Shown piece by piece: positions 406 through 56,070 of a stretch of 64,000 nt of DNA (the stretch's first letter is position 1; each line of letters opens with the position of its first letter). Made by a program: the position numbers and the translations under genes. The notes below the pieces were generated by a model. It was not told the origin of the DNA, did not search any database, and was given only the letters and a program-made list of their open reading frames with translations. The stretch covers positions 2,604,001 to 2,668,000 of the forward strand of contig JBLDXI010000015.1 in NCBI GenBank assembly GCA_047495785.1, read 5' to 3'. Source of the stretch: Lepidodermella squamata. Taxonomy: Eukaryota > Animalia > Gastrotricha.

Positions 406-827
406 ATGTCGCAAATATTTCTTATAATCAACTTCTTGGTCCTAATTTTGGCCGTTCTGGTTCTCAGCAATCCGGCTGATACCCAACACGAGAATGAACA
501 GGATCCTAAACTTGACAGCTGTTACGATTTGGTCAGCTATCAAAAATTATCTGAGCTGAGTAGAGACGAAATTCTGGTCAAATTCAAGAACTGCGACTGT
601 GAGCATTTTTTCACATTTTTTTCATATTTTTATGAATTTTTGTATTATTTATAGGGAGAGCTTTGTTGAGACAGGCCAAATTAGCACGCAAGCGTGTCGT
701 GCATCTCATGCGTGACGAGCGGCAGCGACGAGTTATAGACGCTTGTTTGAAGGACTTCGGAGGAAGGGCAGCACGAGCCATTCCGATTGTTTCCCTTATT
801 TGCACTTCGGCCGGAATAAAATTGTGA
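406..827 (+). CDS. Secreted peptide precursor 1, 'FGG-ARAIP' ring family (121 aa; exons 406-598, 655-827)
   Basis: Hydrophobic signal peptide (MSQIFLIINFLVLILAVLVLS). Phase-1 GT-AG intron of 56 nt. Exon 2 ends ...ERQRRVIDACLKDFGGRAARAIPIVSLICTSAGIKL*, matching two paralogs downstream. Confidence 0.8.
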
Positions 828-1057
828 AAATTCGTTTTTTAATTAAGGAGGATTTTTTCACTCATTTTTTGTCAGTATTGCCCTGTATTTTCACACGTGT
901 CGTAGAGTTAATTAGTTGAGTTGTTGACGAAAGTCTCGGGAATTCGAACTTGGCATAGGTATCAGCCAATTAAAATCACACTCTACAGAAAATTAGCGGC
1001 CTTTATCTCCAATCAAAAAATCCTAATTAAACATTATATCACAAATGTTGAGAGTGT

Positions 1058-3492
1058 TCATTTAGCTGATCGGAATATAGCAATAATCCAAATGAGACCG
1101 GTCGACAGTGACAGGAAAACAGCCGAAAATGACAGCGTAATCTCCTGTCCGACTAAATCGTCAACAGCGAGTGCGATCAAAATTGCAGCGATCGAAATAG
1201 TCGTTAGATTTACCAAAGCCGCGATGATAACGCCTAATTGAGGAACGGCTCTGCGATAATTGCAACTCCGTATCTTGAAGAGGCAGATAGCTCCGATTAA
1301 AATTTGAACGAAATAAGCGCTGATCGCGGCGAAAATCCATGCAGAAAAATGGCGAGATTTGCAGGTTAACACAGATTTTTCTATCAAAATGTCTTCAAAA
1401 ATAACGTATAACGGCGCCTCCTTAACGGTGAAGCAGCTCAATGGATCAGCAATCAGCCAAACCGCTAAAAATATCGTAATTACAGCCGTGAAAGCTGACG
1501 TAGCGCTCAGAGAGATTAGGTCGATGGATTGTACCTCTTCGATGGTCAGCTTGGTCTGGGGACGAACGAGCATGGCGGAGATCCATGAGTCAGCTCGACC
1601 TCTCGATCCGACACTGTAGGTTCGACTTTCAGGGTAGACTCTGCCCGAGGCGGCTCGTATTGCTGATCTCGCACTTGCTGCAGCACTTGCAGCTTTTGAT
1701 TCGAATTTCGCCATGCCTAGGAAGTAGCCGAATCCTCGAAGACTTATACTACCACCCAACATGGCTAAACCGACAGTCATTAGGGCAATTCTTGCTACCC
1801 AGATTTGGTAAGCGGAATAAGGAGCCAACTTCACGGAAAACATAACTCCAGCTGCATTTAATAGGATACCGCCAATAAATCCTATAAAGGATGATTTTAG
1901 CAACTTCCTATGAGTTTCCTCATATTTCATTTTAATCAGCATTACAATCATCCCTGAGATATGAATAAGAGATGAAATGGCAGCGATTACAACGACTGTG
2001 TAGAAAATTTGCTCAGGAACCGAAACAGTGATCTGGGAAATCTTCTTCCTATCCTTAGGCGCCTTCCCATCCTTTGTCATCCAAACAGGCTCGCGAACTT
2101 TTTTCATGTAATAATGGCTGAATGCGTAACCCGTTGTTCCTGGGTTCTGGTAGACATTGTAAATGTACTTCAGACCATTCTGAGGCGTCCAGTGGCTGAC
2201 GTAGAGTATGTCCATGTCAACCTCACCTAAATCATTGTACCTCATCCGGCCCATTCTTAACCCGGTGTAATCGACTGATATAGCTGAACGATTTACAGCC
2301 TCTCCAACAATCTGAGGATAATCTCTCATATTGCGAAGGGAGTAATTTTTAGTCTGTAAGATTTTTTCAGTTTCATCTAGTACGATAAGAGCTTGGAGGG
2401 TGGTGTCGTAGCATAGAAATCGCTGCTCGTAGTCGAAGACCATTCCTCGACTGTTATTCGTGTATTTATCGTAAATCTCTTCGAATTCTGGAAGAGTTAT
2501 TCCTAGATAGCTCTTCATGGATGGTTCATTCGAAACCATAATTGGCGCAACCCAGTAGGAGAATTTCAACTGTTCGAGTACTCCAGATCTGTAGCAACCA
2601 GGCATGATTTCATTGCCGAGACTTAACGGATCTCCGTAAGTCACGCCAAGAAGGATGAATATGTATTTTGACCCAGCCAACTCATACTTGTAACTCAGGC
2701 AAAGAAATTTCCAAATCAGAGGTAAGCTTGATGTGAACAAGACAATAATTCTCACATCGCTTTGTTTGAGATTAGCGATGACTTGTTCATCGATATCTAG
2801 GACAATGTCAAAATAGGCGACTGTTACGTCTTTCATTTCAAGCGCGAGGCGTTGTAGGATAGTTGCAGAGCCGTAGTCGAACACATTACCGGCATTGGTC
2901 AAAATGCCAAGGCGTCTCCAGTTGCCGCCTCCAACTATGAAATGCATGATTGCATAGGTCAAAACACGGCCAGTTGAACGCATTAGGTACAGGTTTGGGA
3001 ACAATTTACGGTCAGTGAGGAACGGAGCAGCGCAAGCGATACTAACGCTGACTGAGTTGATATGGTGGAGAAAGGGAGCTTGGGCCTTGCACCCAGTTGA
3101 TTGACGGGGTCCGACGATTACAGGCGATTGGTAGGTACCATTGCGGCCGTTGTTCTCAAAACTTCGGCTGAATTGTGCAGCGAGACGGGCGGCATGGATT
3201 CCTGTGTTCTCGTCTTCAAATTGAATCTATAAATGCAAAAATGCGAGAATGAAAAAATTCCTCCTTAAAATTTGATTTTCCGCACTTCAATTTCGTAATC
3301 AGGAAGAATATCTGAGCGGCTGTTCGCGATGTCGACAACAATTTGCGAAGCTGTTTTGCAAGCGTAGCCTGTTGACGGCAATGCTCCTGTGAATGACATC
3401 GATTCCATCATTACCATTTTGTACGGCTTACGGGCCTCTGAAATCGCGATCAAACATGGCGCAATGACGTAGATCACAGCGTGATGAAGCAT
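1058..3492 (-). CDS. Class C GPCR, GABA-B-receptor-like (Venus-flytrap/ANF-receptor domain + 7TM), about 791 aa; exons 3492-3286, 3226-1058
   Basis: Signal peptide; 'NSRSDILPDYEIE', 'PVIVGP', 'FLTDRKLFPNLY' and 'LKQSDVRIIV' are typical GABA-B/ANF VFT segments. Seven hydrophobic helices with 'WLIADPL' after TM4. Phase-0 intron of 59 nt. Confidence 0.85.
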
Positions 3493-4835
3493 TGTTTCAA
3501 ATACTCTGTTGTAGTTTTCTGGCAAATTTGGAATGATGAATTCTTCCGTGAGAATTTACACAGAGTTTATTAGCTGCCATTTTTCTAATAGTCACGTTCG
3601 AAATCACACGCCGCCTGTAATTAACAGATCCCGATGAGGATATTAGTTTAATTGGTATCGATGTTGTTTACCGGAAATTCTAGCCTCTCGCGTGTACCTT
3701 GATCCTTAAAAAGCTAGTTTGCTAGGCGGAGACATTTTATCATGCTATTCAGGACTTGGTCATATTTGGACAGGCAGATTTCCCCGGGCGCAGTAGCTTA
3801 GGTGTGCTGTTTTGCGTTCTATTTTCACATAAAAAATTGATTTTTCGGCAGAAATTTATTTACAAATTGAATATTATGAGTGAAACAAAACTACGTGTTT
3901 TCACAGCAGCGCCGTAGAATTTTACGGGATGACCCCGGTGGACTCAAAATGGAGCACGGGGAGAACTATGCACCCTGCAATTATATCGATTTCCCTTCGT
4001 AAATCGGTCATATGAAAACAGACAAATGAAACAAACTTCAATGCGGAAATAGCATTGAGGAGAAGAACTTGGCAGAGTGATGACCGCTATTAGTGACTTA
4101 AGGTTATCGAGTTCTCAGCTGCTAAAAGAGTTTAAAACGGCGGCAAATTTAAAGCATCTCACCATACCCGAAGTCCTTCATTAAGAAGTCCGTGGGCTTG
4201 GAACTCGTAATTTCCCCTGCGAGTTGACCATCGATTTCACACACCTAAAGCAAAAGCTGCCTAAATCAGCGTTCAAGACTCTCGGTGAATTCCTGAGCTT
4301 TTGAGCGATAGGGTCATTAGCATTATACTTTGCAGGGTTCCCATTTTGCTGCTTTCGTTTCGCTGCTGTGTATTCCGGTGTGTATTGCCGGAAGTCAGTC
4401 ATTTCCTCAGTTCTTCTTATGAATAAAGCGAATTTTGCTGACGTATGCCTTGTTATGGTTCGGCGTTTAGAAAAAAGCATTGCACCGGATATGTATCGTT
4501 TCATTCAGAAAAATTAGGCTAATTCGAACTTAGAATTAATAATCCTGTGCTTTATGATTTCTGTTCGCCGCCCACAACAGAATCCGGCATTAGTCAGATA
4601 TTGCTCTTCTATAATACCAGTTGCCTTATTTTTCCTTCGATCGCTCATGTCGGGGATATAGCTCGCCAAAAATCTTCACCATTAGGTACATGCTTATATC
4701 GGTCCCTAATTGCTTGGATAACTCATGTGACCAAGAAACCCGTGTGCACCTAGCTCTGCCAATTAGCGTCAACGTCATTTATATCAGTGCGCCGTCTTAT
4801 TACATTTCAGCTAGATCTTAGTCACATTCAATAGT

Positions 4836-5275
4836 ATGATGATTTACAAAATCTTCCTCCTTTCCTGCATCGTCCTGGTGACACATGCTTTAACAGACAA
4901 GCGAATTATCTCGCCCACCAACTCTGCGCTGAGACGGGCTTATGCGAACGTGGCGAAGACGAGAGGTCAAACGACAACTGAGAGCTATGTTTGGACAACT
5001 CCTCTGCCGACGTTCAAGCCGACGACGCCAAAGACAATTCGAATTAAATTTAGCAAGTTGAATGTACAATTTCCAGGAAATTGATGATCAATTTGTTTTA
5101 TACAGATCGCAAACTCGCTAAAATACTGCAGCGAACAGGTGCTGGTAGCATGGAGGAGTTGATTCAAATAGCTCGTGAGGAGAAGAAGCGTAAAAAAGTC
5201 GAAGAATGCTTCGATCAATTCGGCGGCAGCTCAGCGCGAGCCATTTTGATTGTCTCAATCATGTGCAAGCAATAA
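4836..5275 (+). CDS. Secreted peptide precursor 2, 'FGG-ARAIP' ring family (exons 4836-5052, 5106-5275; GC-AG intron)
   Basis: Signal peptide MMIYKIFLLSCIVLVTHA, Thr/Pro-rich spacer, C-terminus EEKKRKKVEECFDQFGGSSARAILIVSIMCKQ*. Only the GCAAGT donor at 5053 gives the needed phase 1. Confidence 0.78.
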
Positions 5276-5576
5276 CTTGGATTCAAACACAATAATCGCC
5301 TAAATTCTTCTCACGTATATCCGTGTGTCATCGATGAGGAATAAAGAATAATTGGAAATGTCAGGTTGCTCACTTTTTGACTGCTACCCAGAATCCGTAT
5401 CGAGCGATGTTCGCACGTCATTACCTATAATCCAACGTATTTTTTACGCGGATGATATGAAGGGGAAAAACAACTGTATTGCTTAGTCATGCAGAATAGC
5501 CTTTCAATTATATTCTAGGGATACTCTTTCGGATTCTACAAATGCTTGGAGAATAACGATTTCTGGTTTAAACGAG

Positions 5577-5936
5577 ATGTGCCCTTTCAATACTAACCAT
5601 TTGAAAACTTGCCCAGTCTTTATTTTCACGTTTCTACTCATCATCATCATAACCAGTATTATTCTATTGAAAATAACAACCCCAACCGAGGAGCAACGAG
5701 CGGTTCCCGCGAAACAACCCGATGAAGTATCTCAGAAACTTAGTAAGTCTTAATTTCAGATCATTTCATTCCATCACGGCTTTGTTTCTACAGGTTCACA
5801 GTTGGTGAGCATCTTCTTGCAAATTGGAGATAGCGGAAAGGTTGCTAAGAATAATCAGCAAACAAGCGAACTCAACTACAACCTAATCCCATCGCGAACG
5901 AGCCGCAGACCTGTATATGGTATTCCCTGGAATTGA
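5577..5936 (+). CDS. Putative small two-exon secreted/membrane-anchored protein (102 aa; exons 5577-5742, 5794-5936), absent from the ORF track
   Basis: ATG, hydrophobic stretch VFIFTFLLIIIITSIILL, GTAAGT...TTTCTACAG 51-nt intron, open frame ending SRTSRRPVYGIPWN*. Confidence 0.55.
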
Positions 5937-6021
5937 AAACATTCTTGATTGGTTGAAACGTTTGGAACTTCCACCTTTGCGGCCATAACTTTACATTAAA
6001 GTGAATACGTACGACATTATA

Positions 6022-6408
6022 GGGCGACTTTGCAGTCACATGACTAAGGTCCGTCGATTTTTTTCTGGTCTTGGTCGCGCGGTCGCGCAGTCGTTGTGGT
6101 CGGGCGGTCGTGAAAAAAATGTTCGCTCAAAAATCAGACTGAAAAAAACGATGCACCACCAGGAGTCGAACTAAGGATGTTGGAATATAAAGCCATATTT
6201 TTGATCCACTACGCCACCAGCGTGAAGAAATCTGCCGGGAAAATATTTACACCCATATTGTTCTCAATCGGATCCACTGATAGAAACTCTTAATTGCCAT
6301 GAATTGGTGGCGTAGTGGATCAAAAACATGGCTTTATATTCCACCGCGACCAAGACCAGAAAAAAATCGACGGACTTTGACCTTAGTCATGTGACTGCAA
6401 AGTCGCCC
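6022..6408. mobile_element. Palindromic non-autonomous element (MITE-like) with an internal tRNA-derived segment
   Basis: Arms GGGCGACTTTGCAGTCACATGACTAAGGTC...TTTTCTGGTCTTGGTCGCG and the reverse complement at about 6345-6408. TATA on both flanks. Second inverted pair at about 6182-6219 / 6305-6342. Confidence 0.8.
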
Positions 6409-6709
6409 TATAATGCGAAAGGTTAGAAATTATGCTCCCAACGGACAGCAATTCCTCTCGATCTGCTCTGACATTTAGCACTTGTCGTCGTTTATTTACA
6501 TATCAATGTAATAATTTTATTTTTTGAGTGTCGATGCGAAAGCAACGCCGAATAAATTGATATACAAATCAATAAAATTGTTTGTTTTGAATTGATGATC
6601 ACATCAATTTCCGCCCTGCGACCGGATGTAATTTATCCATCTCATAATAACGAGTAGCCCTGGTCCACACTGCGTTCACAGATATATGATGACCCACTTT
6701 TATGTGAAA

Positions 6710-7084
6710 ATGTTGATGGCTAAAACTATACTCGCAATTTTGCTTCTCATTCCTTTGACGCAAGCTTATGGCAAATTATCCTTTGGCACGTCTGCTCAAA
6801 GTAAAAGCCAGTGGCAAGCTTCAATTCCGAATAATCCCATCACCAACGAAAATGACAAATCGATCGACGTCAATACACGTACTTTTTTATTTTACTATAA
6901 TATTCTACAATGAATAGTTCTCTTTTTTGTAGCAAGACATAATCATGTCAAAGAGCTGTTTCGATTAATGCGAGTCGTCCATGAGCAACGCAAGCAACGA
7001 GAACAGGAAGCCTGCTATAAACAGTTCGGCGGAAAACCCGCAAGAGCAATTCCTATCGTATCCGTAATCTGCTCATCTAAATAG
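6710..7084 (+). CDS. Secreted peptide precursor 3, 'FGG-ARAIP' ring family (exons 6710-6878, 6933-7084; alternative start 6686)
   Basis: Signal peptide MLMAKTILAILLLIPLTQA. Phase-1 GT-AG intron of 54 nt. C-terminus EQRKQREQEACYKQFGGKPARAIPIVSVICSSK*. Confidence 0.8.
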
Positions 7085-7121: not shown

Positions 7122-9077
7122 CTAATAAACAAAATGGAACCAACTGAATTCGCAATCAAAAACTGGCGAAGGGGTTGAATGCTTCAGCATTAGGGTGGGC
7201 TTTAATGAATAACGGGACGCGGATTTTCCCAAATCAGCATCCTTACTAATGATCAACCAGTCCATTTCAGCAAGTGTAGCCCAATGGACTTGCTGCGGGA
7301 CGTTGAGCTCGGAATGGGTAGTTCCGAATATGTTGACATCTTCATTGCGAGCGATATCGTCATATTGGCGAACGATACTGGTAAAATCTTCCTCAAAACG
7401 CTCGTCAGTATGGCTGGTTAGGAAAACGAATATTCCGTGGCGTTTTCTATCATCGAGACGAGAGCGAATGACATCAATGGTTTGATGAACAAAGCAAAAC
7501 AGTTGAATGTCGCGGTATTCCGCGGAAATGTTGCTGTAGTCCGGATACAAAGTCAACGGCTCGAAATGCACGCCTATTTTCGCTGATATCTTCCACTGGT
7601 CTTGCGAGACAGGGATTAAACTCCTTCTCCTCTCTTCCGTTCCAGAAACAAGAGTTCTCAGACCTGCTGATAGCAGTGAAGCTATGTCAGCCACGTGAAT
7701 ATACTCCGGTAGGGAGTTAGGCAGGGCTCGAAGGAAATTCGGGTAGAAATAACTTTGCCGTAGTATCAAATCGAAGGTATTCTCATTCAGATCTTTTATC
7801 AAGATGGTTGGATGGTCGCTATTGCAGAGATTCCCGGTCTGCCTTTCGATTAACCACTCAATTTCAGATTTAGTTTTCACTATTGCTCCGTCTAGGGATC
7901 TGTCCGATTTGAATAAATCATCTAGAAGAGATTCATCCGTAGCAATGATCAATTTTCGGTTAGAAGCCAGAGCCAGGTAGAAAGCAACCGCGGCTGGAAC
8001 GAGACAGTCCGGGAAAGACTTCTGGCAGCTCAAAATTAAAGCCGAATTATTCGAAATATTTGATTGGAAATTCCTTAAATCGGCGACTATTCTGTCTGTT
8101 CTCTCTTGCCTTTCAGAGTACTTGGTAAATTCAATTGGCACAGCACTCTCGATAGTCAAATCAACGCCGGAAAAGCGTAAAATATTATCTTCATCTTCTT
8201 CCATCTCCTGGACTTTCGTTTTGCGAATCCATATTGGACACGTTTCACTTCTTTGGAGAAATACCCCATCAACAGCTGTCAAATCGTGCTTCAAAACAAC
8301 ATCAGGATGAATATTTTTCATGACGGCATTGAAAATTTGATGATGCTGAGGTGGCTGCAATGATGATTTGCACTGTTGAACCGCGGCTTGGCAGAATTTT
8401 CTCATGAAAATTGGAGAGCCGCCAAATAGCTCTGGCGCAAGGTAATGCTCCGCATTTTCATCGATAGGTACAAAGGCGCAAGATCCTTGACGTCGATCAA
8501 ATGGTAGCAATCTTGAAGTTTCCGTCGGAAATAACAAGGGATCTCCGTAAACAGGATGCTCAATTGCAAAACTTCCGGTGATATTGATTTCTAGACCTTT
8601 AACAGATTGCAGGTCGAAATCAGCCGATATTACAAAGCTGAAGAGTTCTTCGTTGAAGTATTCGTACTTTTCCGCATAGTCCAGATAAACCTGACATGGG
8701 TTTATTTCTCCAGGATGGATATATGCCTGGATTTTTATGGCATTCTCTTCACCGTGATTTATATCCACCCAATATTGACTGAAGAGAAAATAGGTGACAG
8801 TTTTGGCATCTAATAATTTCATTTCCTGCAGCTTTTTGTGGTAATTACCAGCAGATGGGGTTTCTTTAATGGCTAGGAGAATCGCAACGTTTCCGTCCTT
8901 GGTCTCTCTTGGTGGACGCTTGTCTCTCCACCTCGATCCAGAGGGTTTAATGCACTGACATTGCGAATAGAGGAGAAATATTGGTAAAAGATTTAGGAAA
9001 TACAAGTAGACTGACATCATTCCTGGGTAAATTAGGAATACTAGTAAGATTCTCGACTTAACGAGGGTAAACATCAT
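7122..9077 (-). CDS. GT6 (ABO-type)-like + fucosyltransferase-like fusion protein, paralog 1 (single exon, 651 aa)
   Basis: N-terminal anchor. 'VISADFDL' (DxD) and 'HPVY...PFDRRQGSCAFVPIDENAEHYLAPELFGGS' resemble ABO 'HPGFY...[29 protein letters not shown]'. C-terminal half has 'KIGVHF', 'IFVFLTS' and 'LAEMDWLII', resembling FUT motifs I-III. Confidence 0.75.
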   Translation of the reverse strand: MMFTLVKSRILLVFLIYPGMMSVYLYFLNLLPIFLLYSQCQCIKPSGSRWRDKRPPRETKDGNVAILLAIKETPSAGNYHKKLQEMKLLDAKTVTYFLFSQYWVDINHGEENAIKIQAYIHPGEINPCQVYLDYAEKYEYFNEELFSFVISADFDLQSVKGLEINITGSFAIEHPVYGDPLLFPTETSRLLPFDRRQGSCAFVPIDENAEHYLAPELFGGSPIFMRKFCQAAVQQCKSSLQPPQHHQIFNAVMKNIHPDVVLKHDLTAVDGVFLQRSETCPIWIRKTKVQEMEEDEDNILRFSGVDLTIESAVPIEFTKYSERQERTDRIVADLRNFQSNISNNSALILSCQKSFPDCLVPAAVAFYLALASNRKLIIATDESLLDDLFKSDRSLDGAIVKTKSEIEWLIERQTGNLCNSDHPTILIKDLNENTFDLILRQSYFYPNFLRALPNSLPEYIHVADIASLLSAGLRTLVSGTEERRRSLIPVSQDQWKISAKIGVHFEPLTLYPDYSNISAEYRDIQLFCFVHQTIDVIRSRLDDRKRHGIFVFLTSHTDERFEEDFTSIVRQYDDIARNEDVNIFGTTHSELNVPQQVHWATLAEMDWLIISKDADLGKSASRYSLKPTLMLKHSTPSPVFDCEFSWFHFVY

Positions 9078-9331
9078 AGGCTACGTCCCCAATCCACAGC
9101 GTATAAGGATTCAGCTGTTCTCAATGAGGCAAACCTCCTTCACCGCGATTATATTCTGAAACATTACACTACCTTGAATTTACTTAGCAATTTTTCATGC
9201 GATGTCAAATAATGGCTAATTCATATAAGTTCAATTTAATATGGCCCAGCGAAAAGCACAGACATGTATTTCAGCAATTCGGTATGTCGATCGTGAATCC
9301 AGAACGCGAATGCACTCATGAAACATATGCA

Positions 9332-10734
9332 TTAGTTATGAATAAGAGTGCTGTTGCTCGAGTTGCCTGCAATCACATTGCTGCTACTCTCTGTTGCGTA
9401 GTCGATTAGTATTAGGAAGTATGTCAGTATTGCGGCGAAAAGCTGATAATTATGCAAAAACGGAAATTGCAATTGACTAAATGCGAAGGGAAACATACTG
9501 CTGCAATGGTTTCTCTCTTCAAAGGAATCATTCCCAGGACATGCAAGCAGCAAGTTTCGGAAATTTGGCTCAGTAACATTGTCAACTGTAGAATGGCTAT
9601 ATGATGAAATATATTGTAGATTCATCATCAAAATACCTGAAGTAGTGTTGCTGAATCCTGAGATTTCACCCTGATATTGAACAACTTCTCCTTCACATTC
9701 TCCGACCAATGCGCGATGAAAGCTGACGGAATGATGAAAATCATCATCCCAGTCAAGGCGGCTAAGATCCAAAAGCCAGCCACAATCGACTCCATCGACG
9801 ATGTTTTAGTTTCTTGCGCGCTCTCTCCCCAAACACCTTGATACAATGTGACTAAGAAAGCTGTAAAACCGTAAGATGTTGTGCTAAAAATCGCAACCCT
9901 GATATGCCGATCCAAATGTCGAACCATTCGTTTGAGAAGTAAATGGCGATCTCGAATGTGCTCGAAGAACGCCTTCTCGTCCAAATCCTTCAAAACTGAA
10001 GCCGAGCTATCTTTGGAGGGAACTGGTTTGCTGTAGCGATTCACTTCTTTCGACAGCTGATGGAAACACCCAGCTAGGGTGAAGCCCAAGAGGGTTAGGT
10101 AGGCTACGCTAAGAGCAAAGCCGGCTTCGTTCAACAAGCTCAAACTTATCCAAATTAGTACTGTTACACAACTCCACGTGAAAGAATCGACACGTTCATT
10201 CAGGTTGAACGGGAATACCATGTAGCCAAGATCTTCCCGGTTTACCATCAGGGCGATTAGAACCAAAACAATGTTAGTCGTCACACCTGATATTGAAGCG
10301 ACGAAGAGACATAGAGCTGTTGGCCCTCTTTCTACCTCTGTTGGCGTGAAACTGGTTCTTACTTGCCCAGGGTATTGCCAGCCCTGTTTCAATCCCAAAA
10401 TAGGGTGGAACTTGCCTTTCCAGCAGCAGATCACCATGTTTGTTCTTACAGCTGCCAGGCTTAAATGATAGAGAGCATCGGCAGCGTGAAATATAACCCC
10501 AGACATCGGGGTATTGGACAGGTTAATTGCAGTGAACAGTAAAAACATTCGCAGGCTGTTCAGCCAAGACAAAGCCACTAAGATAACCACGTATGCTTTA
10601 TAAAGCCAATGGCTTGGTCTGTACTCCCAATCGTCATACGACCAGTTCGGCATCAGACCAAGTATCTTGAGGGCGCTGTGAAGACACCGAAACCCAGTAG
10701 CATCGCCGGGTAGCAAAGCCTTAAATTCGACCAT
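9332..10734 (-). CDS. Gustatory-receptor-like (GRL/7tm_7) protein, about 431 aa; exons 10734-9637, 9585-9499, 9442-9332
   Basis: Multiple TM helices. Spliced C-terminus LTMLLSQISETCCLHVLGMIPLKRETIAALFAAILTYFLILIDY carries the TYhhhh signature. Two phase-0 introns near the 3' end, as in GR/GRL genes. Confidence 0.85.
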
Positions 10735-11066
10735 GAAGATGAATGCATGGGTTGAGAGTTTGCCGACGCTCCGCTAAACTAAAGCTCCTTTTTGATCTCA
10801 TTCAATATTCAAACTCGAACTCTGAAAGCCATTAGCTGCCAGCGTGGGGTTCAAGCTAAAAATAACCGAGACTTGAGTTCAAAAGCCTGGATGTTCGAAT
10901 GAGCTCGAATCAGTATTTATCAGGAAGTTATCGGTATGAACCAGATTGCATACGCCTACGCTTATCTTGAACCTTGTTCGTTATCTTGGCTCATGTAGAA
11001 AAAACCCCAATACACACCATGCATTAAATTCTCTTTATATCACAATTCAGCACGGACTGTTTCATC

Positions 11067-11891
11067 ATGGTGGCAATAAGAGCCTTAATTTTGTTTTGCT
11101 TTCTCGGAGACAGTTACGGTATCTCTGAAGTTGTTTATCCCAGGCCCGCCGCGTTAACCGGATTCTGGCCGTATGATTCTTACTCTGGAGTAGCTGAGTA
11201 TGCTAAGGGCATTCAGACTCTTAACGACTATGGAAAGCTAGTAACAGATCTACCCGGACCTTTTGGTAAACCGGGGACATCCTATACAACTACAGACAAT
11301 GAAACTGCCTCGTTTATTCCAATCGCGACTTATTACGTAGAGGCTCATCAGTCCTTCTCAGTGTCTTTTTACTACTACTCTGGTGATGTCGAGACTAACA
11401 GTGGAATTGTCGAAATCATGGATTTGATAACTGTATCTCGATCTTCATCGAAAAGTCTCGAAATCTGGTCGCAAAATCTGACGGAAGGAATGAGATTTCT
11501 TAGGAAGATAGACGTCATCGATCCGAAAAAATGGCAATTTTTCGCAGTGACCTACAACTACAGCCTTGAAACTTTGAAAGTGTATGATCAAAAGGCGAAT
11601 CTTCTCGAAACGATTCAGATGCCGTTGAGATGGAAAAGTCCTATTGTTTTGGCGTTATTTAATGCCGGTTTAGGAATTATTGACGAAAGGAACATTCAGA
11701 TGTCCAGAAATGACGCATTGGCCTGCGTTCTCATTTACAAAGAAGAACTAACTCCAAATGAAATATCGCAACTACCAGGTGTTTGTGCTGCTGATAGAGT
11801 CCCGATGACGACAACAAGTACCAGCGGGACAAGCAGTTTCGGTCCCCGATTTATCGCTCTTTATCTCATGATTTCGCTTGCCCTTCTATAA
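11067..11891 (+). CDS. LamG/concanavalin-A-like (pentraxin-like fold) secreted, probably GPI-anchored protein, paralog 1
   Basis: Signal peptide, 'GFWP', 'FSVSFYY', 'KKWQFFAVTY', 'CVLIYKEELTPNEISQL', Ser/Thr linker and hydrophobic tail. Confidence 0.7.
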   Translation: MVAIRALILFCFLGDSYGISEVVYPRPAALTGFWPYDSYSGVAEYAKGIQTLNDYGKLVTDLPGPFGKPGTSYTTTDNETASFIPIATYYVEAHQSFSVSFYYYSGDVETNSGIVEIMDLITVSRSSSKSLEIWSQNLTEGMRFLRKIDVIDPKKWQFFAVTYNYSLETLKVYDQKANLLETIQMPLRWKSPIVLALFNAGLGIIDERNIQMSRNDALACVLIYKEELTPNEISQLPGVCAADRVPMTTTSTSGTSSFGPRFIALYLMISLALL

Positions 11892-12038
11892 TTTTATGAG
11901 ATTGATAACATATCTATGAAACTCGTGACGCAGAGCTTATCAGGAGTAAAACGGAATTTGGATTTCTGTATTTAGAATTTTTATCCCAGACTAGGAAATA
12001 CCACTTTTTCAGTTATTCAGTTCTTTTTTCTAAGAGAA

Positions 12039-12914
12039 ATGATTTTTCAATGTATTTTATTTTGCTTCTTCGCCTTGGAGCCTGTTGAGGGGGCTAAAAC
12101 GAATAGCGAAATAATTGTCCCGTTAACTAGGTCGAATTGGCCAAGGCCTAAAGCGATCGCAGGATTCTGGCCCTTGAACCGTGTGAGCGGTCTTTCAGAT
12201 GTAGTTGCCGGCTTGCAGCCCTACAGTGACTACGGACGGTTGGTTACTGAACTGCCCGGCCCATTCGGCCAATTAGCATCGTCATATTCAACACGACCAA
12301 GTTCCGAGAACAATAGAAGTGTCGAGGCGTTTGCGGCAACGCAAATTATTGTCAGTGCTAAATTCACAATATCATTCTACTACTACCCTAGTGATACTGA
12401 ATTAGAAAGTGGAATTTTGTCTGTTCCGGGTCTGATATACATCTCCAATCCTCGATCGGCACAGTCTTTACTGGAGATTTGGTCACAATTTTACAAAGGA
12501 GGTGGTGCGATTTTTCATAGGCTTGCTTCATGGGATGTCATTCAGCCGAAACAGTGGAACTTTTTCGTCTTGACATATGATTCTGAGAATGTTTTGAAGC
12601 TGCTTGATTCAACGGGATCTGTCATCACGACTGTGGGCTTGGAGCTGCCATGGAATATTAGCTCGATATTTATATCCAGTTTCCTCGCCGGTTCCGGAAG
12701 AGTGGGAGATGACGCAAGAATGGTGGCGATGACGCCGAAGGATGCGCTGGCGTGTGTTATGATCTATGAGGAAGTGTTAACCGCAGAGGAAATCAGAGAG
12801 CTGCCTAAGGTTTGCGAGCAAAGTCAAGCCACCAACTCCGCCCCTACGGCGATTATGCCTCGTACAAAACAGCTGTTAATTTCAGTCATTATTGTTTTTT
12901 ATCTTAAAATGTGA
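12039..12914 (+). CDS. LamG/concanavalin-A-like secreted, probably GPI-anchored protein, paralog 2
   Basis: Colinear with paralog 1 (GFWPL, LPGPFG, FTISFYY, WNFFVLTY, DALACVMIYEEVLTAEEI); hydrophobic C-terminus. Confidence 0.7.
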   Translation: MIFQCILFCFFALEPVEGAKTNSEIIVPLTRSNWPRPKAIAGFWPLNRVSGLSDVVAGLQPYSDYGRLVTELPGPFGQLASSYSTRPSSENNRSVEAFAATQIIVSAKFTISFYYYPSDTELESGILSVPGLIYISNPRSAQSLLEIWSQFYKGGGAIFHRLASWDVIQPKQWNFFVLTYDSENVLKLLDSTGSVITTVGLELPWNISSIFISSFLAGSGRVGDDARMVAMTPKDALACVMIYEEVLTAEEIRELPKVCEQSQATNSAPTAIMPRTKQLLISVIIVFYLKM

Positions 12915-15091: not shown

Positions 15092-18034
15092 TCAGCTTTG
15101 GTCATCATGCACCAGATTGACATTGTACCACGAAAAGAAGCACGTTGTCCCGAAGGCGTTGTTAAGCCGCAGTGTAGGTTTCAACGAATAAATCGACGCA
15201 GACTCGCTAAAGGGGCTTCGATTGATCAGCAACCAATCCATTTGCGTCAGAGCCCACCAGTCGACGTAAGTTCTAGAAAACTCGTGCCAATCATCATGTT
15301 GGGTATCTTTCAGGGGCTCGTAAGCGTTAAGAGGTAAATCATCCGCATCGACTACAACGATATCTTCATTCAACATTAGATCGTCTTGTTTCTTCAAATA
15401 CCGAGCAACTTGATCCGTCCCGAATTCGCCGAGATCACTAGAGACGTAGACAATAATCCCGTGGCGTTTCCCTTCATGTAAAAACGACCGAATCAGCAAT
15501 CTTAGATGTTCGACTAAGCACAGAATTTGAGGCATCCAAAGGTCTTGGTTCAACCGGCAATCTGTGCCGTTCCAAATCATGTTCCGGCAGGCCCGAATGT
15601 GAAGCCCGATTTTAGCGGCTTTTCGCCACTTCTCACCGCCGATGCTTTTGACAACCGACTTTTCGAAGGTTTCCTTCAATTTTTGAGATCCATCGCCGAA
15701 AATAATCCTCATCGCCGCAGATTGGAGAACGGAAAAATCGGAATGAGTCATAATTTCCGGGAGCAGGCCAGGTAAACGCTCCAGGATGTTTGGGTAGAAA
15801 TTAGGATTGTTGAAAGTTTGTTTAATTACGAAGGTCGCTCGATTTGTCGTGACCTGCCAGTCTGCGAAGCTGTGGAAATTTTTCAGCGAGAAATTTCTCC
15901 GCGCAATTTCCAAGGAGAAAAAGAAGGCTTTTGCATCGTATAAATCCAACCAGGTCTGGTTTTTCGAGCTGATTTTAGAGATTGAGTCAGAGTAGAGATC
16001 AAGTGGTAGATCGTATATCGCGTTCGGGGTCCGAAAAGCAGCGGAAATATCGTGAGTTCGAGTCCAGTTGTAGTGAAAAAATCGCCCAGTTGCGAGTGAT
16101 ATGAAAAAAGAGGTAATTAGGCCACGAATTCGGTCGCCGAAACCACCGCATTGATCACCAGGTGAACAGCGATATGTAAAGAGCTGCAATCATCAAAAGA
16201 CCAATAAAATTATGAGGAAATTATTTTGAATTTCAAAATTTGAATATTGTTAAGTTTTGTTTACAAATATCAAAGGGGAATCGGGAAATCAAGCACTTGG
16301 GATTAAAATAATATAATCCCGGGAAATTTGGTCCAACCGGGTAAAATACCGAAATTGCCAAAGTTGTTAACATCGAGGTTTCCGGGTTTTTAATATCTTT
16401 GGTAAATTCGTGGACGAATTAGGATGGAAGATTCCCCCGATAGTTTTAATTTCATAAAATTACTTGCCAAATAAAATGTGGCTGTGAAATTAATAGGACT
16501 TGGGTGTAGGAATAAAAAAATAATAGGAAAATGTCCTAAATTCAGAGCCCTTAGCTTTGTGTTTTAAATATGTATGCCTATTCTCAAAGCAATAATCTCA
16601 CAATTTATATTGAATTTAAAAATTAAATGCTGAATATCGAAATTAAAAGAAAATTTAAATGATTTTGACTAAATTAAATTTCAGTATAAAATCGATAATC
16701 GATAATCGATAATCTGAGGACATCAAGCTTACTTTCAGCTTGGACGCGGTTTCAGGATTTCTCAGTTGTTCAGCCATCGGTTTGAAATAATTTGCTTTCA
16801 ACATTTCCATGACCGGGCCGACTTTCTTCTCCCGCCGCCAGAAGTACTCCGAATCGTACCACTCCTTCAACGGCGTTCGAACTTCGCCCTCTCCAACTAT
16901 AACATAGCCAACCGTGTTCAAAACAGACGACGGCACAAATCGATACGTAATTTTCGCCGGTTTCGCAACTTCAACACCAGTCTCAAGTGGCACCATATAT
17001 TCAGGCCCAAGCAGCGTGACACGCTCATTCATCATAAATTTGTTGAAAAGCTGATGAAATTCCGGCCGATTCCTAGAATACATCTCCTCATCCTTACAAT
17101 TCGAGACAATTTTCCTGCAAAAAGTTTCGATAACCCCCGTTTTTCCAGCGAAAAATTCCGAAGCGTAGTAGTGATCAGCCTCACTGCCATGGGGCACATA
17201 GGCACAGGAGCCTGGTCTTCGGTCGTAAGGCCATAAGCTGCGCTTCTCCTTAGGAAACAGGGTCGAATCGTCGTAGATAGGGTGTCTAATCACCACGTGA
17301 TCTCCTATCAGCAACTCCTCCGTTAAATTGACCTTTTGCGCGAAACTGACCCGCGCATCGAACGATATCACGTGACTAAATAAGGTCGCGTCAAAAAATC
17401 GATATTTATCAGCGTAGTCCAGATAAGTCCGGCACGGGTTAACCTCGCCATGCAAAATGACAGCCGGAATAGGAATGACGTCACGTGACGAGAAGGTCGC
17501 AGCTTGTTGCTCGTTCATGTATTGGTCCATGACGAAATAAACGACATGTCTCGCCTCGCCGCGGTAAAAATCGGACGTATTCTGCTTACCTTGCGACGTT
17601 AACAGCGCGTTCCACTCGACTGACCCCACCAAATAATCGCGACTTGACCTGACAACATCCAGCGCTTGATTAACGCGGTTATTCATGATTATCACCGCGA
17701 CGTTGTTTCCACCATTTTTCGGCAATTTCTCGCGCCAATCAGGCAGCGGCGGCGGGCCGTTATCACCGGTGTATTGCCGATATTTGTTGACTGTAACAAC
17801 TGTGAGGAGGGCGATGAAAATGAGAAAAATTAAGGCGGCTGTTGCGAGTTGAAGCCGCGATCGTCGTTGCACTTGCATTTTCGTGTACGCGCCAATTGCG
17901 GCGAAAAATCGCGTTGTAGCGGCTGTTATTGTTCGTGATGATGATCTCAGCTTGCTGCCGCCGCCGCGGCAGTCTGTGTAACACCGGCCGTTTAACATGT
18001 TAACGCGGACGTTGAACAGCCGAAATGTGAACAT
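15092..18034 (-). CDS. GT6-like + fucosyltransferase fusion protein, paralog 2 (exons 18034-16733, 16183-15092; about 797 aa)
   Basis: Type II TM anchor. GT6-like 'RHPIY...WPYDRRPGSCAYVP...HYYASEFFAG' and 'LLGPEYM'. Phase-0 intron GTAAGC...TTGCAG joins it to 'CGGFGDRIRGL', 'KIGLHIR', 'YVSSD' and 'DWWALTQMDWLLINRSPFS'. Same domain order as the intron-less paralog at 7122-9077. Confidence 0.8.
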
Positions 18035-19294
18035 TTGTGATGAATTGGCGGTTCAGGCTATATTCACATGTCCTTTCTATACCTAGGTACAACTATTAGA
18101 AATTTTAGGTGTATATTGTTTAGGATTGTGCTGTTATAGGTATACGCGTATTGTTTAGCTCAGTGTGAAGTTAACGTAATATAAATCCTGCTTACATATA
18201 CCGTATATACACGGATCGTTAAAGTACTCGAGTTCTGACTGAATGGTTTGTCATTGTTTACTCACGCTAATGCGTCGCGCGAATAAAATACTAATTTTGA
18301 GAATATGTCTCGAGCAAATAAATAATTATTTGATTATTCCAAAAAAACTGGGGGAAGTTAAACATACTTCTTTCTCCGGTCGTCTGAATAGTAACCGAGA
18401 ATCCTATACTATAAGAGATGTCATGCTAATATTAAGGAATAGGAACTATTTTTCCCTAATTTTCGAGAGCCAAATTTTGAAAAAAATCCTAATTTAAATT
18501 GAACCTAACTATAAAATGAATAGATAATTTAATGATTTATACAAATATTAAAATTAAAAATATTCTGTTTTCCTAAGAGTAGTCTAATATATAATTACAG
18601 AAAAACAAGATTTAGGAAGTATAAGTTGAGAGCTAATTATTCTGATCTTATTCATGAAAATATATATAAAAAACTTGACGAAATGGGAATAAAAAATGTA
18701 GTCCAATCAGGTAAAATACCAAAAGTTACCGAACCATTGACAATAGGGATTTTTCAGAAATTCCCCAGTGAAATTGCTGATAAAGAATGATCCAAATTAG
18801 AGAAATTTTTGGATAAAAAATGGTTAGAAAAAATGAGAAGAAAGATGCACCGACCTGATCATATAAGTCTCTTTTTATGACCTTGCCTACTTCAGCATGA
18901 AATAAAGAGTGGTCGAGCTCTCAAAAAGCGCAATAATATTCTACCAAGTTATATATCGCAGCAGAATACCGATGCTGAGTGACCTCAGCAGACCTTAGGT
19001 CACATTATTCATTTTCTGACGCTGCTGTTATTAAAACACTGCGGTGAAAAAATTCGACGAAATTCCCAAACGAAAATTTTAATTTTAAGCTGCTTAGCTG
19101 TTCCGCGTCTCATTTAGTCAAAAAATCGAGGAATTTAATTACAAAAAATTTAGGCAATCATATCTATCGGCATTACAAGGACATTTTATCTGTAGTAACT
19201 TTACAAAAAATCAGCACGGTTTTACAAAATGAAAAAAAACAGGGACGTGAGCACATCTCAATTTTCAGTTGTTTAGGTGTTACATTATTCAATA

Positions 19295-22200
19295 TCAACA
19301 GCGAACAGGCGTGTTTTGGAGCGATAGGATGAAATCGATCAGGTTTTGTTCTTCCAAAAGAACCCTTTCAGCCTCGCGGCGGACGTATTTCCGCCAGTAG
19401 ACGTTGGTTCGGATTTTTTCCATGACCAAATTTTTCGGGCGTTCCCCAGTACCGAAACTGCCGTACGATTTCGCGAACATTTCGTACTCCTTGTACTGCG
19501 AGGGCGTGTTAAAATATTCGGCGATTCCAACAAACCAACGCATGACATTACGAGTTGGGCCTCCGAAGCTATATTGGAAAACATCAAAAAATTAATTGTT
19601 TTTTACAATGTAATCAAATCCTATCCGATAATCAATAATCTAAGCTAAAATCTTACTAAGGTTTGAGCTGGTCGAAATTCTCCCGGGCCCAATTCCACAT
19701 CAATTGCCGACTCTCCGGATTGTAGGCAGCATAGTTAGCTATACTCAGGAAATCAGGTGCTCGCAACTTGCCATGGAAAATCTTTTCAAGCTCCCTGGGA
19801 AAAATTCGAAATCGAAAATTTATTGATTTATCGGTCTCATAATACTTCACCTGATGACTATCCAATTATTGCTAGTTTTCATGACAGCAGAGTAGATTGA
19901 GTTTCGCATCGTCTTCAGGCTCGTTCTATTCGCCATGCCGAGTAGGGTGTCGATGGTCGTCTCAGTATCATCTGCCAAAACAACGGAGAGAAGAATCGGG
20001 CCACGAATGCCGACATTTTTCGGGTCTTCCCACGTGCTCTGGCGGTAGTACTCGTAGTAGCATTTGATTTCCTCTGGACGGCGGTAGACCAGGCTCATCT
20101 CTGCCAATGTAGATAGAGTAACCCTATCAGAAATAATTTGGCAAATTTTCCGAGAGATTTAGTTCAATCCTCTTACGCTTTATTTGGATGGGAGTCAGGT
20201 AGAGCCAGAGCCTCTAGACGAGCTGATCGTAAGATTCCAACAATTAATTTCTGTAACAAGAGACATAAAAAGTCCCATGTTAAAATATATAATTTTTTCT
20301 TTTTTTTTTACCTCAAATTGTCCATACGCGGCAGAGTCGGCGAGTGCGTAGCGCAAGTAGGTCACGTGGCCGTAAAACGCGTTCCACACAATGCGGTGCG
20401 TTTCTTTAGCCATAAAGCGGATCAGATTGAAGGAGACTTCATAAGAAAGCCGGCCAGCTTTAGACAACTCAAAAGCATCGTCGATTAGACCGGCACGATC
20501 AACGGGGCTGAATGAATTCTAGCGAAATTCGGTAATCGGTAAAAACAAGAAAATAATTCAGTTGTCATTTCATTAAAAAATTAAATAAAATAAATAGTTC
20601 ATTGAAAAATTGAGGGCAAAACGTGTCATCTAAGTGTTCACTCAAAATGTTGGCCTCTGGAATTCTTGTACGGAATCTTGTAGATCAACTTCGAAAAGGC
20701 CTGGAAGTGGATTTTCGAAGTACCATAAGCCATAAGCCTTATAGTATATATTTTTTGGAAATTCTTGAAAATACTTCCCTTCTTTGGACTTCGGATAGAA
20801 CCCTTTTCCCTTTCATGGAACAAGTTATTTGCGGAAAACCAGAAATAATGAAGATTTTGATAAGTTAAAAATTCTTACAATGTCGTTATCGAGTAATTCG
20901 ACGAATTTCAGCCATGACCGGTGCGGATAATTCACGCGAATATAAGCAGGCTGGCCGACATTAATTTTCAACCCTTCAAATTCACCATTTCCAACAGCGA
21001 TCGAAAACGGCAATCCATCTGAAAAATATCATTGAAATTTTCTAAATTTTAGAAATGCCTTTTACTTGGAGGAAACCATTCCGTAGATGTGTTGGCATTG
21101 CCTTGCCGCCGGAAAACGATAGGTATGTACCACTGAGCTGGTGGTTGAGGTTCGCCAACTTTTCTCAGCGCCTCAACATCATTTTTGGCATAATATTGCG
21201 GCAAAATAAATCGCTCCTGGCGCAGAATCAACTTGCTCTCAGCCTGAGAAAATTCAACAGTGACAAGGGGGTAACCCTTCTGCTCAACCCAGGTGCTCAT
21301 CGCCGCTGCGATGTCAATCTGGCTGAACTGGGCCAACGACTGCCACAAATCCGTCGTCTTCGCGTTTTTGTACTGAAACTTCTTCATGTAAGCACGAGCT
21401 CCGTCGCGGAAATTGGTCATGCCCATGGCGTAGGTCAGCATGCGAATGATAGACGACCCCTTAAGATAGGTGACCCCGTCAAAGGCCGCGCTGATATCGT
21501 CGCCTGTTTTCAGGTTAAACGCTCGAATGGCTCGGGTAGATTCGCTGCCGTCGTCGCGCATTGCGTAGAGGAAATCTTCGTATTCATCGGCGTTTTGGAG
21601 ACGGTTGATCGACCAGCTGGCGGGGAATTCCATGAAGGACGCGAAGCCTTCGTTCAGCCACAGGTCATCCCACCACGACATGGTGACAAGATTGCCGAAC
21701 CACATGTGTGCGAGCTCATGCATTATCACAGAATTTACGCGATCTTTAGCCGCTTCAGTGCTTTCAGCCGAAACCAACAGGGCTGTAAAATCAGGAAAAA
21801 TAAAGTGTACTACTCCTGCATTTAAGAAAATATAGCTAACCTTCTTCTCTGAAAGTGATTAGGCCCCAATTCTCCATAGCACTTGACCTGAATTCGGGCA
21901 AAGCGACCATATCGAGCTTAGGCAACGGGTAATCGACGCCGAAGAAGTCCTGTAACCACTCCATGCCTCGAACAGCAGTATCCAAGGCGTAGGCTGTTTG
22001 TGACACCAGATGATCCGGCACATAGACGCAAATCGGCAAATCAAAGCTGGTCTTGCTGCAGTTTGCTATCGGCTGGTACGGTCCGATTACCATGGCAACG
22101 AGGTAGGTGCTCATCGGGACATTCGTCCACTTGAATCGCGAGATAATGTTCAGGTCAGCCTCGTCGGAATTTCGCCGCGACTCGATGGGCATGTTGGAAA

Positions 22201-23723
22201 GAGCGATGGTTGACGATTTGTGGTGTATAATTAAGGTGAAATTAGCCTTTAAACTCGGCTCATCGAAACAAGGGAAAGCTTTCCGAGCAGCTAAAGGTTC
22301 GAACTGAGTCATCGCAACGTTTCTAAAATTAATTTGAATGAATTGTGATTTATGATGAAATCAATTGAACTTCACATATAATGGTCCCGAAATATCAAAA
22401 AATTTAAAAATTAGTTCAATATTTTTATAAAACCTTTTCAAATTTTCGAAAATTTTTAAATTAAAAAAATCACTAATTGCCTTGTTGAATTTTTAAAATA
22501 AAACCTATGTATTGAAACTATAATTTTTTAATTTTCCAAAACATACTCACAGCTTTGTATTTGATCCAGGAGCCTTGAAAGGTGCCTTATAAAAACCTTC
22601 GAACGTGTCCTTCAAACTGCCGCTGAAGGTTATTTCAATTAAAATGACGCGATTCGCCTTCAATTTCGAAGACAGGTCGATGACGTAGTAATTATACGGC
22701 TGGAAAGCGAATGTGTCTTTGATTTTCAGCCATTCACCATTGCTGTCGTTGTACTTGACCTGAGTCGTCGAAATGTTCAACCGATTTGCGTGTAGAATGA
22801 CGTAATAGGTCGAGTTTTCAACCCTCGCTTCGATCGACACTTTGCCGGTGAAATAGGAGTCGGAATCTGAGTAGAAGTACGGCTTCATTTCGAGGGTGTA
22901 ATGCACTGGAATAATGTCGCTGGGCAGGCGGTAGTTGGTCCATGGTTTCGATGGCTCGTAGATGACTGATCGTTTGCTAGGATTGGCTTCTTGTTCGTTT
23001 TTAGTCAGTTGGGATCGAACACTTGCCGATGATGATAGGTCGTCGCATTTCGAAGACCGTGACGTAAGGCCAGCCGCAAGTCCAACAACCAAGAGCAGCA
23101 AAGCAACTCCTATGGGAAAAGTTGGAATAATTTCGTCTTGCTGTAGCCCAAGTTCAAGAATTAGAAACGCAAACCGTGCCAACCCACTTTTCGAACCCAT
23201 TTTAGATGTGTTTTGAGGGTCTTGAATAATTGGCACAGTGTACGAAGTAGCATCCTGAAGCTAGAGGTTCATTTGAGGATTTTCAGCGGACCAAAAGGGT
23301 TCCCTTTTTATAAGAATTTATAAAACCAGAATTTCACCTACCAACAAAGGTTGACAGAACAATCAAATAGCTGACAGGAACCTTCTGGCTGAGAAATTCG
23401 ATCATGCGGTTGTACGCGCTTGTTTTACTCGCATTCGGATCGCCGCGTGGGTCATTCGAAACCACCTGTTGCATTTTTGTTGGCGCGCTCGGAGCCGCGA
23501 TTTTAGCCGGCGCAGATTGCATTCGTTTTGCCTTGGTGGCACTGCCAGCCTCAAGATAGTTGACAGCCGAAGAGTTCTCTTCATCGATTGGGCGTTGCGG
23601 CGATTCTTCATCGAAGTAACCGCCGCGGAATTCGTTGAAATATTGGCCATCACGTGTTATTTCATCGACGTTGTTTGTCAGATTGACTTCGGACAAGGCC
23701 CCGCCTTGTGATATATTGGCCAT
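19295..23723 (-). CDS. M1 family aminopeptidase (aminopeptidase N/A-like, type II membrane), copy A, multi-exon
   Basis: 'YRLPSDIIPVHYTL', 'TQFEPLAARKAFPCFDEP', 'SAMENWGL', 'HELAHMWFGNLVT...WLNEGFA', 'YLKGSS', 'SPVDRAGLIDDAF', 'WNWARENFDQL'; the intron phases I checked are consistent. Confidence 0.95.
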
Positions 23724-23867
23724 TTAAAAATTATTAACAACTTGATTTACCGTAAACAAATGTACAGTGCTCGCAGTTTTTTGCGTTCGTTCAGTCCGGG
23801 CTGAAAAAAATACACTCCTCGTGGTAACAAATTTCATTTACGTGGTTTTCATGTCGACAGACCAGCT

Positions 23868-23905
23868 TCAAAAATGGTAATTTTACGCCTATGAAACAGA
23901 GGCTT
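23868..23905 (-). promoter_or_regulatory. Conserved upstream motif shared by both aminopeptidase paralogs (second copy about 36477-36512)
   Basis: CAAAAATGGTAATTTTTACGCCTATGAAACAGAGGCT vs CAAAAATGGTAATTTTGCGCCTATGAAACGGAGGCT, 150-250 nt 5' of each ATG; surrounding DNA is not conserved. Confidence 0.55.
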
Positions 23906-24163
23906 ACAGGTTCACGTTCGTAAAGGATAGCGTTTCCGAGGCGTAGAGCGGATGCGTACATCCAAGCTGTAGCCAGATACATTTTGTTCGGCCCCCAAAT
24001 ACTTCGGTATCAGTATAATTCGAAAACTTTGGCGTTGCTCTTTAAATGCTAGAAATGATAACACTGGACTGGAGTATATGTGTTTCGAATTATTACTGAT
24101 TTTTCCAGATTCAGCCGCTCTTAGCAGCTCCGCCCCGGTCAACAGCTGTCTGAGCTTGCGCCT

Positions 24164-24203
24164 CTCGGACACATGAGACGTAGCTACGTCTCATGCTCGG
24201 ACA
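24164..24203. mobile_element. 24-bp perfect palindrome flanked by an 8-bp direct repeat (hAT-like TSD)
   Basis: CTCGGACA-CATGAGACGTAG|CTACGTCTCATG-CTCGGACA. Confidence 0.7.
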
Positions 24204-25173
24204 GTGTATGAATTCTATAGTGAAGGAAGCATCTTAAACAGAATTTACGCCTAATTTAGAGATTATTTATTTTGAATTACCTATGCTGATCAATCGTTGC
24301 AACCTTGGCAGGTTTTGAAAAGTGGTTTTAGGCCCATTGAAAATTCCAAAATTTGGTCCCGCTAAAAGGAGGAGGGCCGGTTAGCAGGTAAAATGCGCAA
24401 TCCGCCCAAGGTGAGAAAGAGCTGAAACTAATTTTAGAAATTACAGAATAATCAAAAAGATGGATAGAAAAAAGTCCGAGAGCGATAGGATGCTCAGGTA
24501 GCAATTGAAAATTCTGCGAAGTTAATACTATTTGGCGTTGCTCACAAGAACGCGTACAAATAACTCTGGTCACATGACCGCGCGAGATTCAAAACCTATC
24601 AAGGTTCGAAGTTTAAAACGCGATTTCCTGCGACAAAAGTGTCGAACAAAACCAAATTAAAATATCAGTATTAGTATTTGATATTAATTTTAATAATAAT
24701 TTTGAATTAAAAAATTAGGTGAAAAACTAGCGAAAATCGGAATTTTTTTATGCGGAACACGGCGATCGGTTTTTCAATTTTTCTTGACGGATTTAGATTC
24801 CTAGCTAAATTTCGCGTCGTTTGATGTAAAAATGTTGTAGGTTCGAGGATGTCTTGACACTAAATTTTAGCCGCAAAGTTAGTCGCAATGTGAAATTTCT
24901 GACGCTGCCATTTAAAAAGATTGCGGTGAAAAAATTCCCAGTCAAAATTTTTATTTATATCTTGTTCCAGTTTTGCGTCTCCTAGAGACAATAAATTGAG
25001 TAATTTCAATATGAACAAAAGATATATCTATCGGCAATAAGGACGTTTGAAGACTCGTTTTGTCTATTGCAAATTTACAAAAAAATCAGCACGATTTTAT
25101 AAAATGGAAAAACAGGAAAGTGAGCACATGAAAAATGTTGATCTCATTTGTTCAGTTTGTTTTTTTTTAAATA

Positions 25174-55795: not shown

Positions 55796-56070
55796 CCCAA
55801 TATTTTCAAAATTATTTTCTATTCGTTTGCGCAATAGTTGTTCGAATGAAACCACAACGGATTCAGCTTTTCTCTGGTTCCTACGGTTCCGCAGTGTTTT
55901 CGGTATACAAACCAAGATGAATGTGTGAAATTTTAACGCTGTTGAAGTAAAGAAGCTGAATATTTGCACGTCTAAAAATAAAGTTGAAGCACTAAATTTT
56001 CCGATTCTTTGCGAGTATGGTTATTTTTTTTTCTGTTTGTCTATAATGATCAATATCGACCCATTGAAAA

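Follow-up and report, generated by a model that had tools for sequence, protein, structure and literature searches.

Three predicted secreted ring-peptide precursors and an interleaved GABA-B-like receptor gene in the gastrotrich Lepidodermella squamata

We describe three paralogous genes, here called p1, p2 and p3, in a 64,000-nucleotide stretch of DNA from the gastrotrich Lepidodermella squamata (GenBank assembly GCA_047495785.1, contig JBLDXI010000015.1, positions 2,604,001 to 2,668,000 of the forward strand; hereafter the window). Each of them encodes a small protein with a predicted signal peptide and a 20-residue motif bounded by two cysteines near the C-terminus, and a gene for a G-protein-coupled receptor (GPCR) of class C is interleaved with them. 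We lean towards the reading that the products of p1–p3 are secreted, cut at a basic site and release a disulfide-closed signalling peptide of 26–31 residues. The structure of the genes, the splicing of two paralogs (p1 and p2) and selection on the ring are shown by the data and are presented first. The locus contributes a candidate family of peptide ligands whose ring, at 20 residues, is unusual, and with it offers three short, synthesizable peptides and one intact orphan receptor that lend themselves to a direct test. Details of the features are presented in Table 1.

Table 1. Features of the locus, in positions of the window
Feature	Position	Strand	Details
p1	406-827	+	exons 406-598, 655-827; 56-nt GT-AG intron, phase 1; 121 aa
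p1 Cys-to-Cys motif (20 residues)	744..803	+	ring Cys95-Cys114
Class C GPCR, GABA-B-like	1058..3492	-	exons 3492-3286, 3226-1058; 791 aa
p2	4836-5275	+	exons 4836-5052, 5106-5275; 53-nt GC-AG intron, phase 1; 128 aa
p2 Cys-to-Cys motif (20 residues)	5207..5266	+	ring Cys107-Cys126
g4, small two-exon gene	5577-5936	+	exons 5577-5742, 5794-5936; GT-AG intron, phase 1; 102 aa; start codon inferred
Foldback/MITE-like insertion	6015..6415		perfect 37-nt terminal inverted repeats; nested inverted repeats; in g4 3' untranslated region
p3	6710-7084	+	exons 6710-6878, 6933-7084; predicted 54-nt GT-AG intron, phase 1; 106 aa
p3 Cys-to-Cys motif (20 residues)	7013..7072	+	ring Cys84-Cys103

Peptide genes and the conserved ring

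The motif C-x3-FGG-x2-ARAI-x-IVS-x2-C occurs exactly three times in a six-frame scan of the window (first Cys codons at 744, 5207 and 7013), against a chance expectation of 6e-11 given its 12 fixed residues. When a profile built from the exon-2 peptides was run over the window, no fourth copy emerged (next E 0.36). An earlier reading of the sequence, the original prediction, had described three secreted-type two-exon genes with phase-1 introns of about 55 nucleotides, a C-terminal Cys motif common to all three, basic clusters ahead of the ring and a signal peptide followed by a non-conserved pro-region, and our models agree with it on each of these points (introns of 56, 53 and 54 nucleotides). 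The basic sites are RKR and RQRR in p1, KKRKK in p2 and RKQR in p3. All three N-termini are hydrophobic (9-residue hydropathy 3.2–3.8) with plausible −3/−1 sites; the signal-peptide calls were made from hydropathy and −3/−1 heuristics and are clear in p2 and p3, the cleavage site of p1 being less certain.

Two public sequencing runs cover the locus, namely X1, which is RNA-like (the label RNA being our guess), and X2. Contigs of X1 skip 598>655 in p1 (GT-AG) and 5052>5106 in p2 (GC-AG), and on the evidence of this one run p1 and p2 are therefore spliced as modelled. They also skip 5742>5794 in g4 (GT-AG), as well as 3226>3286, the intron of the receptor gene, where the short side of the joint is 25 letters. 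None of these four joints is among the 15 of 36 entries listed for X2. The intron of p2 (5053–5105) is a non-canonical GC-AG intron with the donor GCAAGT, which had been missed earlier. The p2 transcript contig of X1 carries a polyA signal at 5340 and runs out in a stretch of A at 5358, past which we take the sequence to be cDNA adapter. Thus, of the three junctions put forward for a transcript check, those of p1 and p2 are borne out by X1 contigs, whereas no contig was found to bridge the p3 junction (6878/6933). The lone X2 indel inside p3 (6922) is located in its predicted intron.

Twelve of the 20 ring residues are invariant among the paralogs, and nine of these 12 are encoded by differing codons. 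In pairwise comparison, codon positions 1 and 2 are identical at 32–34 of 40 sites (80–85%) and third positions at only 6–8 of 20 (30–40%), which shows that the ring codons are under purifying selection. This contrast between codon positions is that of old duplicates kept by selection on the protein sequence, and p1–p3 are, judged from sequence, old tandem paralogs. Of the 269 entries for differences in X2, 40 were listed, and five of these fall within the coding sequence of p1; two of the five jointly alter residue 26 in the pro-region, and the remaining three, including both inside the ring, are synonymous.

Searches for relatives of the peptides gave no accepted match. None of 1718 candidates of 99–2000 residues was a homolog (shorter lengths lay outside that search), and none of 324 stretches from the JGI metagenomes was confirmed; eight JGI pattern matches were rejected, five having a stop inside the ring and three lacking the rest of the motif and the precursor layout. 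The sole match among 1,835,955,588 protein representatives, a 1536-residue repeat protein sharing 16 positions in seven stretches, which we presume to be a nematode polyprotein allergen, was also rejected. In the ESM Atlas, a bacterial HTH_33 match at 0.92 with merely 132 shared features was discarded, and p2 gave no usable match. Four ring fragments, queried against Pfam with E up to 10, matched no family, and the PDB gave no chain, although these queries are short and weak matches are lost in HMMER filtering. No paper in a full-text search, which did not extend to supplements and subscription journals, contains any of five short motifs taken from p1–p3, and such places could include a survey of neuropeptides in this lineage that lists these peptides. 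Even a conserved neighbouring aminopeptidase does not exceed 46% identity in the 120 matches listed of 785, suggesting that the lineage is poorly represented in databases; the blank searches are thus weak evidence of novelty and say little on the true range. With this in mind, p1–p3 probably constitute an undescribed, lineage-restricted family of predicted secreted peptide precursors. The gene family proposed earlier as undescribed peptide ligands is real in that its members are selected, precursor-like, spliced (p1 and p2) and without a recognised relative, while cleavage and disulfide closure are steps that we infer.

Peptide release and the uncut alternative

In the reading that we prefer, the precursors would enter the secretory pathway by means of the predicted signal peptide, and a convertase would cut at the basic site, 5–8 residues before the first Cys. 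The Cys-X18-Cys disulfide of the released peptide would close the ring, its invariant FGG..ARAI.IVS face may form the receptor-binding surface, and the peptide may signal as a hormone, neuropeptide or pheromone. The layout is that of a prohormone as far as sequence can tell, with a basic convertase site ahead of a conserved putative mature region. The exon-2 peptides can be aligned (p 0.0005 against shuffles) and the pro-regions cannot (p 0.05–0.57), and a variable pro-region joined to a conserved tail is the pattern of prohormones. Basic residues stand in register at −8 and −5 from the first Cys in p1, p2 and p3, forming R-x-x-R in p1 and p3.

Several observations weigh against release of a cut peptide. 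Ungapped conservation reaches −16 upstream of the first Cys and spans the basic site (score 79 against a shuffle mean of −9, p 5e-5), and p2 has no R-x-x-R but dibasic pairs only. AlphaFold2, run on the three-sequence alignment (predicted local distance difference test (pLDDT) 84, predicted TM-score (pTM) 0.56), models the stretch before the first Cys as one long helix, FGG as a turn and the remainder, to the second Cys, as another helix; the basic site falls within the long one. Given conservation across the basic site and this helix, an uncut domain of about 40 residues fits equally well. The final nine ring residues are strongly hydrophobic (2.6–3.0), as would fit a function that is membrane-active or structural. 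Moreover, the p1 pro-region, downstream of the signal peptide, carries an extra pair, Cys39 and Cys63, which was absent from the earlier account and allows other disulfides.

These points lead to the main alternative, possible but rather doubtful, in which the products remain uncut as mini-proteins of about 40 residues, each a helix, a hinge and a hydrophobic helix clamped by the disulfide, and act on membranes or surfaces (in defence, gland secretion, adhesive or cuticle) and not as receptor ligands. Apart from the conservation through the basic site, the predicted helical hairpin and the hydrophobic ring end, it is favoured by the net charge of +3 to +5 of forms beginning at −16. In favour of the cut signalling peptide, the predicted cut forms are weakly charged (+2, 0 and +2), whereas typical antimicrobial peptides are cationic. 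Against the uncut alternative, the ring keeps its 12 invariant residues despite saturated third positions, a tighter conservation than membrane-active peptides usually require, and the basic residues have stayed in register. Amphipathic helices ahead of cleavage sites are, besides, common in prohormones. A single-sequence model of p2 (pLDDT 70) is also a helical hairpin. In fold searches, no Foldseek match was obtained at E 0.001, and VIA-align (best Z 5.1, root-mean-square deviation 2.3–2.6, 49–55 residues aligned) returned generic helical hairpins.

Two further observations concern the region upstream of the ring. The 16 conserved residues preceding it had been overlooked in the original prediction. 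In the p1 pro-region (487–594), an ungapped alignment relates the 13 residues surrounding Cys39 to the pre-ring stretch of p2 and p3 (p ~0.01, uncorrected), and this region may be a second copy of the module that has decayed.

The interleaved receptor and the natriuretic comparison

The receptor gene is tail-to-tail with p1, the two stop codons being 231 nucleotides apart, and head-to-head with p2, which lies 1344 nucleotides from the receptor ATG. Its product has a signal peptide and a Venus-flytrap domain but no cysteine-rich domain; six hydrophobic stretches exceed the threshold where seven are expected, and Pfam gave no seven-transmembrane (7TM) family. Its closest solved relatives are the GABA-B subunits (PDB 9jqx and 4mqe; E 1.8e-10), whose Venus-flytrap domain likewise connects to the 7TM region with no cysteine-rich domain. 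It differs from them in its low identity and in having no C-terminal coiled-coil tail, with about four residues after the last hydrophobic stretch. Among the γ-aminobutyric acid (GABA) contact residues listed in PMC7997371, only Ser130 is kept of Ser130, Gly151, Ser153, His170, Tyr250, Trp278 and Glu349, as read by hand from alignments in which Trp65 was not aligned and the lobe-2 positions are approximate owing to the low identity. With one of seven contacts kept, the receptor is an orphan. Ten of the 13 listed coding variants are synonymous, and as read from its sequence the receptor is an intact, live, divergent GABA-B-like orphan. A crowded search yielded no receptor homolog among 7996 scored candidates.

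An orphan class C GPCR among the peptide genes was thus correctly recognised in the original prediction, which missed its GABA-B-like identity. The ANF-receptor/Venus-flytrap ectodomain also claimed there holds as a fold; the Pfam label ANF_receptor, however, names the shared fold only and implies no relation to natriuretic receptors, none of which is among the 22 structure-database matches of the receptor. In natriuretic receptors the peptide is bound between two ectodomains, whereas in receptors of class C the cleft takes up small ligands.

That the peptides of p1–p3 are the ligands of this receptor, forming a linked ligand-receptor cassette, we regard as unlikely. The argument for the pairing is purely positional and makes the receptor a candidate: it sits, intact and spliced, between p1 and p2, may possibly share with p2 a head-to-head promoter of 1.3 kb, and, with all readable GABA contacts lost except Ser130, may have another ligand. 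V2R vomeronasal receptors belong to class C. A precedent for a peptide on a class C-type receptor is mouse ESP1, which acts on Vmn2r116/V2Rp5 according to PMC7826187. On the other hand, the window is gene-dense and crowded with unrelated tandem families (glycosyltransferase-6, LamG, M1 aminopeptidase, sushi and EB), so that interleaving is ordinary and position is thin evidence. GABA-B-like genes without the GABA residues are also known in other invertebrates; in Nematostella, four of eight are predicted not to bind GABA (bioRxiv 10.1101/621060). The arrangement is, furthermore, that of one locus in one species, and the literature matches listed held nothing on point for peptide-liganded GABA-B-like receptors or linked ligand-receptor genes. 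We hold it to be very unlikely that the locus is a linked cassette of three remotely natriuretic-like ring peptides signalling through a neighbouring GABA-B-like receptor that has lost GABA binding. A response of the neighbouring receptor would mean that a receptor of the GABA-B type had been turned to the use of peptides, and that ligand and receptor sit as a pair in one locus.

A resemblance of the ring to natriuretic peptides, possibly convergent, had been raised in the original prediction. Like p1–p3, ANP, BNP and CNP have a signal peptide, a pro-region, a basic site and a single C-terminal Cys ring, and, counted from the last Cys, the two groups have F-G at −15/−14 and R at −9 in common. 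Natriuretic peptides are defined by a 17-residue ring, C-X15-C (PMC12343078 and PMC9502559), with the consensus residues C1, F2, G3, D7, R8, I9, G14, L15, G16 and C17 (PMC9502559). The rings of p1–p3 are all C-X18-C, hydrophobic and predicted to be helical, and gave no profile or PDB sequence match. With the last Cys as anchor, each of the three has the consensus F2, G3 and R8, p1 has L15 besides, and D7, I9, G14 and G16 are matched in none, giving scores of 5, 4 and 4 of 10 for p1, p2 and p3 with the anchor Cys counted. For any one anchored comparison, the probability that three or more of the nine other fixed positions match by chance is 0.011, and among the 190 Cys in the 19 long open reading frames (ORFs) of the window 2 reach this level. 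Since anchors can be chosen and many ring-peptide families can be compared, the resemblance is weak; the shared F2, G3 and R8 stand, but on ring size and fixed residues the peptides of p1–p3 are by definition not members of the natriuretic family. Least probable among the readings considered is a divergent invertebrate natriuretic branch with the first Cys moved three residues upstream and acting through a receptor guanylyl cyclase, which can draw on the matched residues, the alike precursor layout and the natriuretic-like sequences reported from jellyfish, leech and centipede (PMC12343078), but conflicts with the C-X15-C ring of all described members, the four absent residues, the modest chance probability and the blank Pfam and PDB searches. 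If intermediates to C-X15-C exist, the family would bear on how natriuretic peptides arose outside vertebrates; failing both these and a responding neighbour receptor, p1–p3 would represent one lineage's secreted peptide family.

Precursors of the somatostatin/allatostatin-C, MCH, elevenin and calcitonin types also have one C-terminal ring after a basic site and a variable pro-region, but their rings are much shorter than those of p1–p3. The rodent exocrine gland-secreting peptides (ESPs) offer a parallel, being secreted products of clustered genes that have two coding exons and are restricted to a lineage (PMC7826187). They differ in their phase-0 intron at the signal/mature boundary and in forming an uncut helical protein of 7 kDa, and there is no sequence match. 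The likeness is one of functional analogy only.

Neighbouring genes

The small gene g4, located between p2 and p3, had been missed in the original prediction. Its product has an N-terminal hydrophobic stretch and ends in RTSRR followed by eight residues, with no ring. It was rejected as a fourth paralog because no similarity to p1–p3 was detectable (p 0.19–0.87), and it may encode a small peptide precursor of its own or a membrane protein of type II. The foldback element in its 3' untranslated region, which resembles a miniature inverted-repeat transposable element (MITE), has high depth in X2, and neither X1 nor X2 contigs carry it at this site; it is a polymorphic insertion.

The gene content of the window includes a nicotinic-type channel, astacin, and EB and sushi modules, and together with the short introns it points to an animal with a compact genome. 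Glycosyltransferase-family-6-like ORFs are present at 7122-9080, 16655-18052 and 15092-16189, all on the minus strand (E 7.5e-4 and 3.2e-8), and the first of them runs on into a second domain that by eye resembles the ORF at 15092-16189. A single-exon ORF of 381 residues at 9628-10773 (minus strand) encodes a multi-pass membrane protein with no meaningful Pfam match, presumably similar to gustatory-type chemoreceptors, to judge by eye. A tandem pair of single-exon LamG-like genes at 11028-12914 (plus strand) encodes proteins with a signal peptide and a hydrophobic C-terminus, possibly anchored by glycosylphosphatidylinositol. At 37656-39546 (plus strand), astacin-like protease exons are followed by UBR-box zinc-finger repeats, an unusual neighbourhood if they belong to one gene. 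Recent tandem duplicates of M1 aminopeptidase and of sushi-repeat proteins occupy 21049-34843 and 48908-62112, both on the minus strand.

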